Sequence record: PZ445407.1
Length of the DNA: 47,731 nucleotides
DNA from: a phage
Reading direction: 5' to 3' (one strand)
A program made the translations under genes and the position numbers. Positions 25,121 to 32,500 of this stretch are shown here, piece after piece; position 1 is the stretch's first letter; each line of letters starts with the position of its first letter. Below the pieces are notes generated by a model. It searched no databases. It had not been told where the DNA came from and worked only from the letters and a program-made list of their open reading frames with translations.

Positions 25121-25135
25121 TAGCACAGATTGCTA
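25121..25135 (-). promoter_or_regulatory. palindrome TAGCA cagat TGCTA only ~22 nt upstream of tail fiber start codon (operator-like position)
   Basis: Perfect palindrome but no room for the usual spacer, -10 and leader. Confidence 0.4.
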
Positions 25136-27015: not shown

Positions 27016-29010
27016 ATGTTGCCTATCGAGAAGCTGGTTGCCAACTTTGATAAAGAGAGAATTAAACAGATTCAGAAAGATTACCAGTTTGGCGAGATAA
27101 CACCTTACGAGTTCCAGTGCGTTACATTTGATGCAATTGGGAAAGCCATTGGCAAGTATGAGGCTCCATTTATCGCAGACCTTTCCGTGTCTGCGGGCAA
27201 GACAATAATTCTGGCTATGATTGGTAAGCGCATGGAGCAATTGGGGTTGCCTTATATGGTGCTCTCTCGCCAGTCAGAGATAATCAGCCAGAACTCAGAA
27301 GAGCTTCGCAACTTCGGCATCCGTAACAGCGTCTATTGCGCTGGTCTTAACGTTAAATCAGTTTACTACCCAACCATAGTTGCTAGTGAGGGTACGGCAG
27401 CCAACGGCTTGTTTAAGGGGCTTGGTGATTATGTTCCGGCAGTTATCGCTATCGATGAATGCCACATGGTCGATCACATGGATATCGTGGAAGCTGAAGA
27501 GAACGAAGAAACATTTGAGCAAATGAGCACAAAGAAAGGTGAGATGGTATTCAAGGATGGCGTTAACACTGGTTTGATTGGTACAGGTCGCGCACAATAC
27601 ACGCTAATAATTACCGAAATGAAACGTCGTTGCCGTGAGAAATACGGGCGGGAGCTTCGCATCTTTGGCCTTACTGGCAGCCCATATCGTAACAACGATC
27701 ATATCGTCGTTAGTAATCCAAACATCCGTGGTTTCTGGCGCAAGACGGTAATACAAGTACCAACCAATTACCTTGTTGATTTGGGGTTCGTTGTGCCAAC
27801 TGTTTACGGTGAGGTTGGCGATTTGGGTTACGATCTTAGTGAGTTTGCGCCAGATGGAAGTGACGGAATTAAGGATTTTAGCAAAAAAGAAATGGATGCG
27901 ATGGAGGAGAAAATCCACCAAAACCAATCAATGACTCAAAAGATTATGCAATTTGCCGCAAAGTTCATGGAGACTCGCAACGCAGCGCTTGTGACATGCT
28001 CTGGTAAGCGTCACTGTGAAGAAGCGGCAGCGGCGCTTCCTGAGGGTGTGACCTGGGCTATAGTAACCGACTCTACAGGTGAGAAAAAGCGCCGTGAGAT
28101 TCTGGCTGACGCTTCAGAAGGTAAGTATAAGTTCATCTTTCAGATTGGTTGCCTCACAACCGGAGTGAACGTCCCACCGTGGGATACATCAATCATTCTG
28201 CGCAAGGTTGGTAGCATCACGTTACTTATTCAGCTTTTGGGTCGAGGCATGCGAATTCTTAAGAAGAAGCATAAAGAAATGGGCATGGTTAAGGACGACC
28301 ACGTGGTTCTAGACTTCGCTGGAACACTTGACGACATGGCAGAGTTGTACTTTGACCCAATCATAGAGGAGGTGCAGGACCAGAAGTTTAAATCATCACG
28401 CAAGGGAAACGATGAGCCGAGGGTTTGCCCGGCCTGCAGCTATGAGAACTCACCATTCGCTCGTCGATGCAATAACGTAATTGACGGGAGGCGTTGTGAA
28501 CATTTTTTTAAATTTCGCTTATGTGAAGATATAGAGGACCACCAGACAAAAGTTACTGTTAAGAAAGGTTGTGGTGAGAAGAATGATATTGCCGCTAAAA
28601 ACTGCCGCTGCTGCGGAGAAATGCTTATTGACCCTAACGCAAAGTTGTCTGGAAAGATGTATCGAAAAGGTGACTGGTTGAGAGTTTACGGATTCAGTAT
28701 TGGGTTAACTAAAAACCAAGCCGGAATCGTTGCTCGCTATGAAATAATGGCTCACAGCGGGGATAGGTTTGTTGCTTACGAAACTTTCTTCCCAGAGAGT
28801 GACCATCGCGTTTGTTCCGTTAAGTGGAAGGCATTTTGCCAGGCGCACATCCAGAACAAAACAGAAGCATTTCGCATCGGAAGACTTCGAAACGCCAAAA
28901 TGATTATGACTAACGCAATTCAATTTCGTGAGCCAATGCGAGTGACTCATAGAAAGAACCAGAAGGGGCAGGACATTATTGCAAACAAATCTTTTACTAT
29001 GGATGATTGA
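27016..29010 (+). CDS. DExH-box helicase
   Basis: Motif II DECH (AIDECHMVDH), motif VI-like QLLGRGMR, C-terminal Cys clusters. Confidence 0.75.
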   Translation: MLPIEKLVANFDKERIKQIQKDYQFGEITPYEFQCVTFDAIGKAIGKYEAPFIADLSVSAGKTIILAMIGKRMEQLGLPYMVLSRQSEIISQNSEELRNFGIRNSVYCAGLNVKSVYYPTIVASEGTAANGLFKGLGDYVPAVIAIDECHMVDHMDIVEAEENEETFEQMSTKKGEMVFKDGVNTGLIGTGRAQYTLIITEMKRRCREKYGRELRIFGLTGSPYRNNDHIVVSNPNIRGFWRKTVIQVPTNYLVDLGFVVPTVYGEVGDLGYDLSEFAPDGSDGIKDFSKKEMDAMEEKIHQNQSMTQKIMQFAAKFMETRNAALVTCSGKRHCEEAAAALPEGVTWAIVTDSTGEKKRREILADASEGKYKFIFQIGCLTTGVNVPPWDTSIILRKVGSITLLIQLLGRGMRILKKKHKEMGMVKDDHVVLDFAGTLDDMAELYFDPIIEEVQDQKFKSSRKGNDEPRVCPACSYENSPFARRCNNVIDGRRCEHFFKFRLCEDIEDHQTKVTVKKGCGEKNDIAAKNCRCCGEMLIDPNAKLSGKMYRKGDWLRVYGFSIGLTKNQAGIVARYEIMAHSGDRFVAYETFFPESDHRVCSVKWKAFCQAHIQNKTEAFRIGRLRNAKMIMTNAIQFREPMRVTHRKNQKGQDIIANKSFTMDD

Positions 29011-29011
29011 T

Positions 29012-29431
29012 ATGAATATTACAGACAAAGTTGATTACATTGAGTTTTACCCGGGCCCGGTTAAGTCATGCCCCAAAGAGGACGACGAACAGATCTTTTG
29101 CTCTGATTGGGTTAAGTACCATTATCCTCAGATTATCTATTGGCATACCGTTAATGAGGGGAAGAAATCAATGTGCGCAGCCAGAAAGGATGCAGCAAAA
29201 GGCCTCCTTAAAGGCGTATCAGACTGCCTATTTCTAATACCTGAACCATTGCGAGGAAGGTATCCATTTGGCGCAATAGAGCTAAAGAGGGCAGGGAAAA
29301 CGCAGGCTAGTCCAGTCAGCGAAGATCAGAAGGCATTCCTGAAGAGCGTAAGAGAATCAGGCGGCTTCTCGGCTGTGGCCTACGGTCGTGAAGGTTTTCT
29401 TGCGGCGTTCAGAGAAATGATTTCAAAATAG
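29012..29431 (+). CDS. VRR-NUC-like nuclease (putative)
   Basis: D/E/K residues in DCLFLIPEP...GAIELK arrangement; start choice 29003 or 29012. Confidence 0.45.
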   Translation: MNITDKVDYIEFYPGPVKSCPKEDDEQIFCSDWVKYHYPQIIYWHTVNEGKKSMCAARKDAAKGLLKGVSDCLFLIPEPLRGRYPFGAIELKRAGKTQASPVSEDQKAFLKSVRESGGFSAVAYGREGFLAAFREMISK

Positions 29432-30075: not shown

Positions 30076-30272
30076 TTGGCATCTGCGTAAAAACAAATGG
30101 AAGTTTTACTTTATTCGATGAGTACGAGATTAATTTTGGCGATGATTTTTATTCAGACAAGATTGTAGTAATGAGCGATGATGGATGGAATTACATTATT
30201 GATTATCAAGGTGATGGCTACTACGGGTGCGTAGACGCGAAAGGAAAAGAAGTTAGTTTCTTGGTTGAATAG
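30072..30272 (+). CDS. hypothetical protein
   Basis: ORF track; stop TAG forms next promoter palindrome. Confidence 0.4.
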   Translation: MIGICVKTNGSFTLFDEYEINFGDDFYSDKIVVMSDDGWNYIIDYQGDGYYGCVDAKGKEVSFLVE

Positions 30273-30967: not shown

Positions 30968-31038
30968 CGAGCCTAATACTAGTAGCATCGTTACCACTGT
31001 TTAGCTTTACTATCTTATACTTTATCGCAATGAATTAA
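30964..31038 (+). CDS. hydrophobic micro-ORF (24 aa, MTSLILVASLPLFSFTILYFIAMN)
   Basis: Hand-translated; ATGA overlap with upstream stop. Confidence 0.2.
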   Translation: MTSLILVASLPLFSFTILYFIAMN

Positions 31039-31050
31039 GGAACTTATATA

Positions 31051-32181
31051 ATGGCAACTGCAAAAATTACCAACGAAGAACTGCGCGAAGAACTGGCTAA
31101 TGGCATGACCAACAAAGCTATCGCAGAGAAGTACGGAATGAATATTCGCAATGTCGAATTGCGTCGTAGTAAATTAGCTAAGAGTGGAGAGTTGCACGGA
31201 AACCCAGGTATCAAGAAGTTAGTTCCTGACGGTTATTTGGTCAAAGGTACGTCAACCATGATTGATGCGGATGGCAACGAGAAGATTCGCTGGGTTAAGA
31301 CCTCAATTGATAATGAGCGACTTGAGGTTTTAATGGAGCAAGCTCGAGAAGCATTCTGCTCTGATTTGCCAAAAGCAGATGCGGTAATCCACTCAGGTAA
31401 TGAGGTCAACTCTGAGTTAATGACTCTTTACCCTATTTTCGATATCCATATTGGCATGATGGCGCATCGCCATGAGTCCGGCGAAAATTATGACACGAAC
31501 ACCGCTGAGAAATTAATGGGATCATATTTTGACCATGCAATTTCCGTATCACCAGCCTCAGAGAAAGCCGTGATTTTAGTTGGTGGTGATTTCCTTCACT
31601 CCGATGGGTTGGAATCGGTAACTCCAGCAAGCGGACACTGCCTTGATCAAGATAGTCGATATGCCAAGTTAGTTTATGTTGCTATTCGCTCGATTCGTTG
31701 CGCCGTAGAGAAGATGCTTAAGAAGCATAAGAATGTCGAGATTCAGATTATAGAGGGCAATCACGACCAGAGTGGTATGATTTGGCTCCGTGCGGCAATG
31801 GCTGCATTTTATGAAAACGAGAATCGCGTGTTTGTTGATACCAGTCCGGCAATCATGCACAAGACGCGATTTGGCTCAACATTACTTGGTTACACTCACG
31901 GTCACACCATGAAGAAAGCCGAGGGTAGACTTGCAGCAATGGCTACCGACTACCGCAAAGACTTTGGTGAATGTGAGTTTGTTTACTGCCACTCCGGCCA
32001 TTTCCATCACGCAACTGTTACAGAGTGCACTCTTGGGATTGACGAGGTTCACCCAGCGCTGGCTAGTAAGGATGCGTATGCAGCTCGAGGAGGGTGGCGC
32101 TCATATCGCCAAGCTGCCGCAATCATCTATCACAAGGAGTTCGGTGAGGTTGGTAGGCATATTTATCGCCCAGGCATGTAA
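31051..32181 (+). CDS. calcineurin-like metallophosphoesterase with N-terminal HTH-like domain
   Basis: Motifs DIHIG..H, GGDFLH, GNHD, GHxH; N-terminal TNKAIAEKYGMNIRNVELRRSKL. Confidence 0.55.
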   Translation: MATAKITNEELREELANGMTNKAIAEKYGMNIRNVELRRSKLAKSGELHGNPGIKKLVPDGYLVKGTSTMIDADGNEKIRWVKTSIDNERLEVLMEQAREAFCSDLPKADAVIHSGNEVNSELMTLYPIFDIHIGMMAHRHESGENYDTNTAEKLMGSYFDHAISVSPASEKAVILVGGDFLHSDGLESVTPASGHCLDQDSRYAKLVYVAIRSIRCAVEKMLKKHKNVEIQIIEGNHDQSGMIWLRAAMAAFYENENRVFVDTSPAIMHKTRFGSTLLGYTHGHTMKKAEGRLAAMATDYRKDFGECEFVYCHSGHFHHATVTECTLGIDEVHPALASKDAYAARGGWRSYRQAAAIIYHKEFGEVGRHIYRPGM

Positions 32182-32182
32182 G

Positions 32183-32225
32183 TAGCACTTTTTGCCTAAA
32201 GGATGCCGTAGAAATACGGCATAAT
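32183..32225 (+). promoter_or_regulatory. palindrome-type promoter variant (TAGCA-N5-TGCCTA)
   Basis: Direct read; one-base insertion in right half-site. Confidence 0.4.
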
Positions 32226-32266
32226 CACCAAATCGAAACGAGATGAACTAAACCAGGAAACACAAA

Positions 32267-32461
32267 ATGACTAAGATGATTTATTGCACCAAGAACAACT
32301 CCAAGACTCTGCCGTTTACTGTCAACCAGCCGTACAATGCGGAGTACCAGGGTGATGGATATTTCAAGATTTACGGCGATGACATGACGTGGATTTTAGC
32401 GCCGATTGATGGTTCGCTGGTTGAATTTATTATCGCTGACTAGCGCAGCAAAAACATAGCG
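32267..32461 (+). CDS. hypothetical small protein (64 aa)
   Basis: Hand-translated behind conserved promoter/leader; not in supplied ORF track, so coordinates need checking. Confidence 0.25.
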
Positions 32462-32472
32462 TTAAACACGGG

Positions 32473-32500
32473 GGGGCTTTTGGCTCCCTTTTTTTATGCT
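32473..32500 (+). terminator. rho-independent terminator before lysis cassette
   Basis: G-rich hairpin + TTTTTTT. Confidence 0.4.

Follow-up and report, generated by a model that had tools for sequence, protein, structure and literature searches.

A helix-turn-helix metallophosphoesterase of T1-like coliphages is a candidate stand-alone DNA nuclease and may be sensed by DRT7

Introduction

Among the described enzymes that bear on the product of bas03_0050, the gene at positions 31,051 to 32,181 of phage sequence record PZ445407.1 (the whole stretch of 47,731 nucleotides is called the window below), are the Mre11/SbcD nucleases, of which we take T4 gp47 and T5 D13 to be phage homologues. The P. 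putida metallophosphoesterase MPE, or PdeM (PDB entry 6NVO), is a Mn2+-dependent single-stranded DNA (ssDNA) endonuclease of a ligase-Lhr repair operon; it needs its residues His81 and His113 to cleave ssDNA but not to hydrolyse bis-p-nitrophenyl phosphate (bis-pNPP) (PMC7826289). Mycobacteriophages of cluster A encode a host-toxic metallophosphoesterase (A10ZJ24 gp48, Bxb1 gp47) that reportedly has phosphodiesterase activity, disrupts host genomic DNA and is dispensable in one host (PMC12287305).

The most direct information comes from a sister phage. The syntenic orthologue bas01_0050 of phage AugustePiccard (Bas01, also Bas1) has 376 residues, of which 363 (97%) are identical to those of bas03_0050. 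In a recent preprint on the DRT7/UG10 reverse transcriptases (bioRxiv 2026, 10.64898/2026.02.16.706125), four spontaneous escapers each of Bas1 and lambda-vir were sequenced. The Bas1 escapers from DRT7 bore missense or frameshift changes within Bas01_0050, termed there a putative nucleic-acid-targeting phosphoesterase, and the lambda-vir escapers had lost gam; co-expression of Gam and DRT7 reduced growth, expression of bas01_0050 was toxic to uninfected cells, and the frameshift mutants still formed plaques (10.64898/2026.02.16.706125). These escape and toxicity data therefore suggest that a protein 97% identical to bas03_0050 is dispensable for plaques, harmful to uninfected cells and needed for DRT7 action.

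Here we compare bas03_0050 with the known metallophosphoesterases and weigh what it may do. With evenly balanced confidence, we propose that it is a stand-alone, HTH-tethered (helix-turn-helix), metal-dependent phosphodiesterase that cleaves DNA, that its likeliest target is non-packaged (host) DNA, and that its action or its products are sensed by DRT7.

Results

Identity, architecture and active site

The product of the open reading frame (ORF) is 100% identical to the 'hypothetical protein bas03_0050' of Escherichia phage JulesPiccard, which is Bas03 of the BASEL collection (Drexlerviridae, Braunvirinae; genome 47,731 bp). The nearest annotated relatives of the window are T1/Rtp-like coliphages with ~83-89% DNA identity. 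Membership of the protein in phrog_704 is full-length: the hidden Markov model of the family matches with E 6.9e-151, residues 4-376 aligning onto profile positions 2-388 of 390. The ratio of nonsynonymous to synonymous substitution rates (dN/dS) is 0.018 and 0.026 against two relatives (dS ~0.7); the whole protein is under very strong purifying selection. The features of the gene, all on the + strand, are the following.

31051..32181, + strand: coding sequence of bas03_0050, HTH-metallophosphoesterase, phrog_704 member (from the ORF list; ATG at 31051, stop codon TAA at 32179-32181; 376 residues)
31037..31042, + strand: Shine-Dalgarno sequence AAGGAA, 8 nt 5' of the ATG, read directly from the sequence
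31072..31182 (residues 8-44), + strand: predicted three-helix HTH module resembling sigma-70 region 4 and LuxR/GerE (AlphaFold2 helices 8-16, 21-28 and 32-44; predicted local distance difference test (pLDDT) 82-92 by block over residues 11-50)
31234..31362, + strand: conserved beta-hairpin (residues 62-86) and helix (residues 88-104), a family-specific module between HTH and enzyme core (AlphaFold2 and conservation)
31363..31407 (residues 105-119), + strand: variable linker (low pLDDT of 65-68; indels in alignments)
31408..32178 (residues 120-376), + strand: binuclear metallophosphoesterase core, alpha/beta, beginning at about residue 120 in the AlphaFold2 model, with no capping domain behind it
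31441..31449, + strand: motif I, D131-I-H133, metal ligands (99% conserved; aligned to D33/H35 of P. putida MPE)
31585..31599, + strand: motif II, G179-D180-F-L-H183, with D180 as metal ligand and H183 corresponding to MPE His81 (D180 100%, H183 98% conserved)
31756..31767, + strand: motif III, G236-N237-H238-D239, with H238 corresponding to MPE His113 and proposed as general acid (N237 and H238 99% conserved)
31897..31905, + strand: motif IV, H283-G-H285 (H283 100% conserved)
31996..32007, + strand: motif V, G316-H317-F-H319 (G316 98%, H317 95%, H319 99% conserved)

The AlphaFold2 model, built from a 68-sequence alignment, has a mean pLDDT of 85.5 and a predicted template modelling score (pTM) of 0.70, and it contains the alpha/beta sandwich fold common to solved metallophosphoesterases. 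All four motifs named in the first-pass annotation (DxH, GDxxH, GNHD and GHxH) can be read in the protein, to which motif IV with H283 is added. Conservation was measured in the best 150 cluster representatives of a library clustered at 50% identity, where D131, H133, D180, N237, H238, H283, H317 and H319 are 95-100% conserved; among close relatives of bas03_0050 all five motifs are invariant. Because this conservation extends across 150 diverse representatives, the motif set lies far beyond chance, and the assignment stands on the very point, active-site conservation, that had been set beforehand as the one able to overturn it. By its motifs and modelled fold, bas03_0050 is a predicted member of the calcineurin-like binuclear metallophosphoesterase superfamily. 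It does not reach the gathering scores of the Pfam models Metallophos (19.8 vs 27 bits) and Metallophos_2 (15.7 vs 21.5 bits), because the family is too divergent.

The N-terminal module is supported by the model and by sequence matches in relatives. In Pfam the GerE match of bas03_0050 itself has E 0.05, under threshold, and GerE is also the top sequence match of the 68-sequence family profile in the PDB (E 0.2). Relatives repeatedly match the HTH models Sigma70_r4_2, HTH_1, GerE, HTH_8, HTH_23 and HTH_28, with E down to 1e-6, and these matches extend to distant family members from Rhodobacter, Shigella, Salmonella and Vibrio phages. The hairpin-helix module is more conserved than the HTH (G75 91% and W81 95% in the 150 representatives), and distant homologues from Vibrio and Campylobacter phages can be aligned from about residue 64 onward. 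The HTH-like N-terminal region joined to a calcineurin-like enzyme, as first described, is thus supported by the three modelled helices, the HTH matches of relatives, the motifs and the fold. Its description as a fusion holds for the joined domains and fails for a local event: the HTH and enzyme architecture appears to be ancient and family-wide, defining phrog_704, with no local or recent fusion.

Comparison with characterised metallophosphoesterases

Profile and structure searches, which had been proposed as a check, give PdeM as a recurring weak match and Mre11, SbcD and PolD-DP1 as top fold neighbours. In the fold search with the bas03_0050 model these three nucleases rank first and protein phosphatases low; the viral structural neighbours outside its own family are phage metallophosphoesterases of 400-500 residues, whose names are merely machine labels. 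PdeM (TIGR04123) is the sole enzyme-domain match that recurs among the curated bacterial families, being found with 12 of 30 diverse members (best E 1.6e-5); with bas03_0050 itself it gives E 0.0014 and 18.1 bits, short of the 150 bits set as the curated cutoff. For the single protein, the P. putida 'Nuclease MPE' is again the best sequence match in the PDB, at a level that is not significant, and no significant enzyme match appears in the PDB sequence searches with either the single protein or the 68-sequence profile.

PdeM is therefore the comparison with the most detail. (i) No other characterised family matches the bas03_0050 family repeatedly at the sequence level. (ii) Its metal ligands and both nuclease-essential histidines align to conserved residues of bas03_0050: His81 and His113 correspond to the histidines of GDFLH and GNHD, that is, H183 and H238, conserved at 98% and 99%. 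(iii) Neither protein has a capping domain after the core or a visible SMC-type ATPase partner (for MPE, PMC7826289). In contrast to bas03_0050, MPE has ~200 residues and no HTH or hairpin module, and it is encoded in a bacterial operon with an Lhr-core helicase, an ATP-dependent ligase and an exonuclease, whereas the neighbours of bas03_0050 are phage genes.

The likeness to Mre11 and SbcD is one of fold. Only ~190 residues align, and unlike these nucleases bas03_0050 ends with the core, has no capping domain, carries an N-terminal HTH and lacks a sequence-profile match: SbcD/Mre11 models give zero matches in Pfam, NCBIfam and PDB profile searches. In the close relative RobRod40, the annotation of the 20.8 kb surrounding the gene lists no Rad50/SbcC-type partner, nor was one found in the other lineages or among the window neighbours scanned with PHROG, all outside the structural-gene half.

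As a phage-encoded toxic metallophosphoesterase, mycobacteriophage gp48/gp47 offers the best functional analogy for the proposed model. It differs in having ~255 residues, no HTH and motif I at residue 10. Membership of bas03_0050 in the same family was rejected, as hhalign gives a probability of 2.9% and aligns only the motif segments. The phrog_704 or UniRef 'Phosphoesterase' proteins of T1-like phages, on the other hand, share architecture and motifs with bas03_0050, which is one of them and differs in nothing material. The label 'DNA repair exonuclease' of phrog_704 is an automatic annotation for which we found no biochemical basis. Judged from sequence, then, the bas03_0050 family is best described as a distinct metallophosphoesterase clade with its own fused, predicted DNA-binding module, which fails membership of every characterised nuclease clade.

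The three functions put forward in the first-pass annotation can be separated further than it supposed. Its view that sequence cannot decide among them was too pessimistic: with the fold rank, the MPE histidines and the orthologue genetics, a DNA nuclease is the clearly favoured prediction, a protein phosphatase looks unlikely, and the published genetics are hard to square with a signalling-nucleotide hydrolase.

The phosphatases of the PPP family carry the signatures GDxVDRG and GNHE. A protein Ser/Thr (or Tyr) phosphatase in the manner of lambda NinI, reprogramming host proteins, would share the superfamily fold with bas03_0050, is phage-carried in the nin/late region, and would suit both a calcineurin-like enzyme and the position of prophage copies in the nin/Q/lysis region, where lambda has NinI. 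Motif II of bas03_0050 (GGDFLHSD) and its motif III (GNHD) depart from the PPP signatures, phosphatases rank low in structure, and the HTH would have no role. In addition, a NinI-like phosphatase family distinct from this one is matched by two ORFs upstream of family members (in the neighbour scan described below); one locus can therefore hold both genes. We regard this function as very improbable.

A phosphodiesterase of signalling nucleotides (cyclic mono-, di- or oligonucleotides, or signals derived from ADP-ribose), acting as a counter-defence enzyme, would account for a dispensable gene, as accessory counter-defence genes are. Yet loss of the gene gives escape from a defence rather than sensitisation to it, and its expression is toxic. 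The predicted DNA-binding HTH is conserved family-wide, as is the nuclease-type histidine of motif II (98%), and a dN/dS of ~0.02 with very wide vertical conservation would be unusual for an arms-race gene. Nor does any defence or anti-defence model match bas03_0050 in a PADLOC search, a result on which kinship with the metallophosphoesterases of defence systems was also rejected. Taken together, this makes a signalling-nucleotide hydrolase improbable.

Distribution of the family

When 1.84 billion cluster representatives were searched with a profile, 5248 relatives reached E<=1e-3 and 1317 of them E<=1e-30; most have 370-420 residues and match almost end to end. By tblastn the gene is found in 2029 of 50,697 phage records, or ~4% of deposited phage genomes. 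Its carriers include T1-like, Jersey-like, Dhillonvirus, Casjensviridae, Gorganvirus, Vibrio and Campylobacter CP8-like phages, and alpha-, beta- and gamma-proteobacteria also carry it within chromosomes of megabase size, i.e., in prophages.

Some records place T1-like coliphage sequences under unlikely hosts: 'Campylobacter phage A110b/A112a' and 'Pseudomonas phage PsgS01F', the last of 44,679 bp, which is the length of an E. coli phage record. T1-like phage sequence also occurs in a 'Bacillota bacterium' contig from a metagenome-assembled genome (protein 95% identical) and in a Nitratidesulfovibrio assembly. These records are probably laboratory or assembly contamination.

Genomic neighbourhood

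In the window, bas03_0050 closes a rightward block that consists of an SF2 helicase, a phrog_824 protein and then six small ORFs. On its 3' side follow a 58-residue ORF (32267..32443), a terminator-like hairpin (32470-32490) and the genes for holin (start 32565), endolysin and spanin. The gene had been placed just before the lysis cassette, which is approximately right, with the 58-residue ORF and the hairpin intervening before the holin.

Lysis-gene proximity recurs in Drexlerviridae, EP23, RcMrWorf and a lambdoid Dyella prophage, with the lysis genes preceding the gene in EP23 and RcMrWorf. In the lambdoid-type prophage of Dyella halodurans (NZ_CP064028.1, 1-12954) the HTH-phosphoesterase gene lies between a Q-like antiterminator and the endolysin. 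In other lambdoid phages this slot holds cargo such as stx.

For a broader view, ORFs on the same strand as the gene and no more than 2.2 kb away from it were annotated with PHROG at 60 bacterial loci. Each count is a number of ORFs, in which one protein may figure twice where PHROG families overlap; as a chance yardstick, 2.2 kb is ~5% of a 45-kb phage genome, or ~3 of 60 loci per side. Upstream, endolysin is the commonest annotation (9 ORFs in the largest family, ~17 summed over distinctly named families), besides spanin (4) and holin (3). The downstream annotations comprise endolysins, HNH, TerL, deoxynucleoside monophosphate (dNMP) kinase (4), nucleoside 2-deoxyribosyltransferase (3) and dNTP pyrophosphohydrolase (2). 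The family tends toward the lysis/late-gene boundary, often beside nucleotide-salvage genes. Neighbourhoods vary among the lineages compared, and no conserved partner gene was found in them.

This setting bears on the possibility that the enzyme is a nuclease acting on the phage's own DNA, at ends, hairpins or branches during recombination-dependent replication, or on concatemers and in packaging, as a Mre11/SbcD-like enzyme without a Rad50 partner. The structural neighbours Mre11, SbcD and PolD-DP1 work at DNA ends; the phage has a recombination set of RecE-like exonuclease, Erf and SSB; several loci place the gene beside HNH and TerL or among head genes; and lambda evades the same defence through loss of Gam, which acts at DNA ends via RecBCD. 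Against it, the frameshift mutants form plaques, so that the gene is unneeded for replication or packaging in the laboratory, toxicity in uninfected cells requires a host target, and the lack of a conserved partner gene across lineages also counts. We consider a role on phage DNA unlikely, if worth keeping in view.

Another alternative is an end-healing 2',3'-cyclic phosphodiesterase/3'-phosphatase for RNA (or DNA), like the bacterial Pnkp module, that would work with polynucleotide kinase to mend cuts made by defence systems. Where T1-like phages lack the small SH3-like gene, this gene is directly followed by polynucleotide kinase or dNMP kinase, the former being among the commonest genes at that position in such Drexlerviridae (PMC13164509). 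Polynucleotide kinase was seen there in three of the matched relatives too. Bas03 itself, however, has no polynucleotide kinase or ligase beside the gene, toxicity would be unexpected for a repair enzyme, and the HTH module suggests binding of duplex DNA. Moreover, T4-type polynucleotide kinase has its own phosphatase, which we also count against this reading. As a whole, an end-healing enzyme seems to us a poor prospect.

Other features of the neighbourhood are recorded here as observations. The 58-residue ORF (32267..32443, + strand) may have an SH3/DUF7244 fold. Between this ORF and the holin gene stands GGGGGGGCTTTTGGCTCCC, a strong hairpin that resembles a terminator and has a T-run behind it (32470-32490), and this hairpin makes co-expression of the ORF with the lysis genes questionable. 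The phrog_824 ORF after the SF2 helicase (28979..29431 or 29012..29431, + strand) has a weak match to an endonuclease family and is possibly a small nuclease. It overlaps the end of the helicase gene if TTG at 28979 is its start; the RobRod40 annotation of 420 nt fits a start near 29012, the one taken for the PHROG scan.

A repeated intergenic element 3' of the gene

The palindrome promoter that had been assigned to bas03_0050 lies between its stop codon and the next ORF. The element recurs through the window, this being one of its copies, and no canonical sigma-70 promoter was called at 32183..32225 in a promoter scan. The element and its other copies are as follows.

32183..32225, + strand: intergenic element outside the gene and before the next ORF, with TAGCAC-TTT-TTGCCTA, the hairpin ATGCCGTA-GAAA-TACGGCAT (32203-32222) and a -10-like CATAAT (32220-32225)
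12122, 13383, 29429, 32183, 40199, 41569 and 43335, + strand: starts of the repeated element, with a partial copy at 25121
7730, 21773, 26928, 30270, 39068 and 42187, + strand: copies with one mismatch
37357, 36519, 35739, 26189 and 20144, - strand: starts of the repeated element

The sequence TAGCAC-TTT-TTGCCTA at 32183 is a degenerate copy (2 mismatches) of the motif TAGCAC-N3-TTGNTAA, found 28 times across the window where 5.0 +/- 2.0 matches would be expected; 0 of 100 shuffles reach 28. The motif is itself an inverted repeat, TAGCA-N5-TGCTA. In ~14 full copies it heads a composite element: TAGCAC-N3-TTG(C/T)TAA, then ~22-27 nt that often contain a dyad, a TATAAT-like hexamer, CATCGAAACGAGAG and a start codon. 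The spacing from TTGCTA to the -10-like hexamer exceeds that of a canonical sigma-70 promoter. Its sequence suggests an operator/promoter module to which a dimeric DNA-binding protein would bind.

The copy at 32183 belongs to the downstream gene, because it starts two bases past the stop codon of bas03_0050. No full copy was found directly upstream of bas03_0050, the closest upstream copy being that at 30270; the gene is therefore probably co-transcribed with the small ORFs before it. The hairpin at 32203-32222 is a perfect 8-bp palindrome with a GAAA loop, unique in the window, with a fold z-score of -2.0 and no T-tract. It was rejected as a canonical terminator, since the T-tract is missing, and as a repeated element in its own right, since it occurs once in the window.

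The corresponding region of Bas01 (MZ501051.1, 3161-3850, against window 32160-32290) carries an insertion, an HNH homing endonuclease gene, which separates the phosphoesterase gene from the SH3-like ORF. On either side of the insert stands the TAGCAC...hairpin element, one copy with the stem TAGCCGC-GAAA-GCGGCTA; relative to the window, the dyad and the GAAA loop are kept and the stem sequence is changed.

The repeats also allow a different reading of the protein, as chiefly a transcription regulator whose HTH would bind TAGCA-N5-TGCTA operators and whose enzyme domain would be regulatory or vestigial. The HTH resembles sigma-70 region 4 and LuxR, and ~20 genomic copies of a palindromic operator-like motif exist, one of them directly 3' of the gene. 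Set against this, the catalytic residues are 95-100% conserved, viable frameshift mutants speak against an essential reader of ~20 promoters, and a further candidate regulator is encoded by the phage (phrog_2856, 26429..26914, - strand). Among 88 loci fetched, the operator occurs in 4 T1-like loci only and in 0 of the 84 other gene-bearing loci, which led us to reject the idea that the HTH of the family reads it. A mainly regulatory protein is accordingly hardly credible.

Discussion

The architecture, the intact and conserved active site, the nuclease-like fold rank, the purifying selection, the genomic placement and the genetics of the orthologue in the preprint are the observations from which a mechanism for bas03_0050 can be drawn. 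We suggest that the N-terminal HTH, together with the beta-hairpin and helix behind it, would hold the enzyme on DNA. A binuclear centre of D131, H133, D180, N237, H283, H317 and H319, whose metal is probably Mn2+, would activate water against a backbone phosphodiester. By analogy with P. putida MPE, H238 could serve as general acid and donate a proton to the leaving group, with H183 assisting. The gene would be an accessory one, given that the phage is expected to form plaques without it. Attack on non-packaged (host) DNA would be the source of toxicity, and the resulting DNA damage or products may make T1-like phages visible to the DRT7/UG10 defence. Host DNA is proposed as the target because the gene is toxic and dispensable and lies beside genes for lysis and nucleotide salvage, and because the mycobacteriophage enzyme offers an analogy. 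The DNA substrate, the host-DNA target, the metal, the timing of expression and the mode of DRT7 sensing are those parts of the model that we infer.

Several points weigh against this proposal of a host-directed DNA nuclease. (i) We found no biochemical data in the literature for any family member; the WASA V. cholerae paper, in which Bas03 was used, is silent on this gene. (ii) All sequence matches to characterised families are far under thresholds. (iii) The genetics come from a preprint that is not peer-reviewed and concern the sister phage Bas01, not Bas03; the positions of the bas01_0050 missense mutations are absent from its text. (iv) The toxicity of bas01_0050 was reported without a catalytic-mutant control and could stem from the HTH or another activity. 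(v) The link to host-DNA degradation is drawn by inference, as is the timing of expression.

A wider version of the proposal, which we put forward tentatively and hold to be doubtful, would extend it to the family: a late, lysis-linked enzyme of tailed phages that wrecks host DNA, and whose action on DNA (free ends, ssDNA, overload or block of RecBCD) would be the infection signal for the DRT7/UG10 reverse-transcriptase-primase. If this were true, the enzyme would be the T1-like counterpart of lambda Gam as a trigger of DRT7, and a defined pathway of immune sensing would gain a link to an uncharacterised, core-like phage enzyme.

No new entity is discovered here, since catalogues already list the gene and its family and genetic work has only just drawn attention to the orthologue. 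The value of the family lies in its abundance, its lack of biochemistry and the genetic handle that DRT7 provides. Should bas03_0050 prove to be a stand-alone, HTH-guided DNA nuclease, it would represent a third solution among metallophosphoesterase nucleases, beside Mre11/SbcD-Rad50 and PdeM, and would become a candidate for the enzyme behind host-DNA degradation by T1-like phages. The escape genetics of DRT7/UG10 make it testable which molecular event this defence detects.

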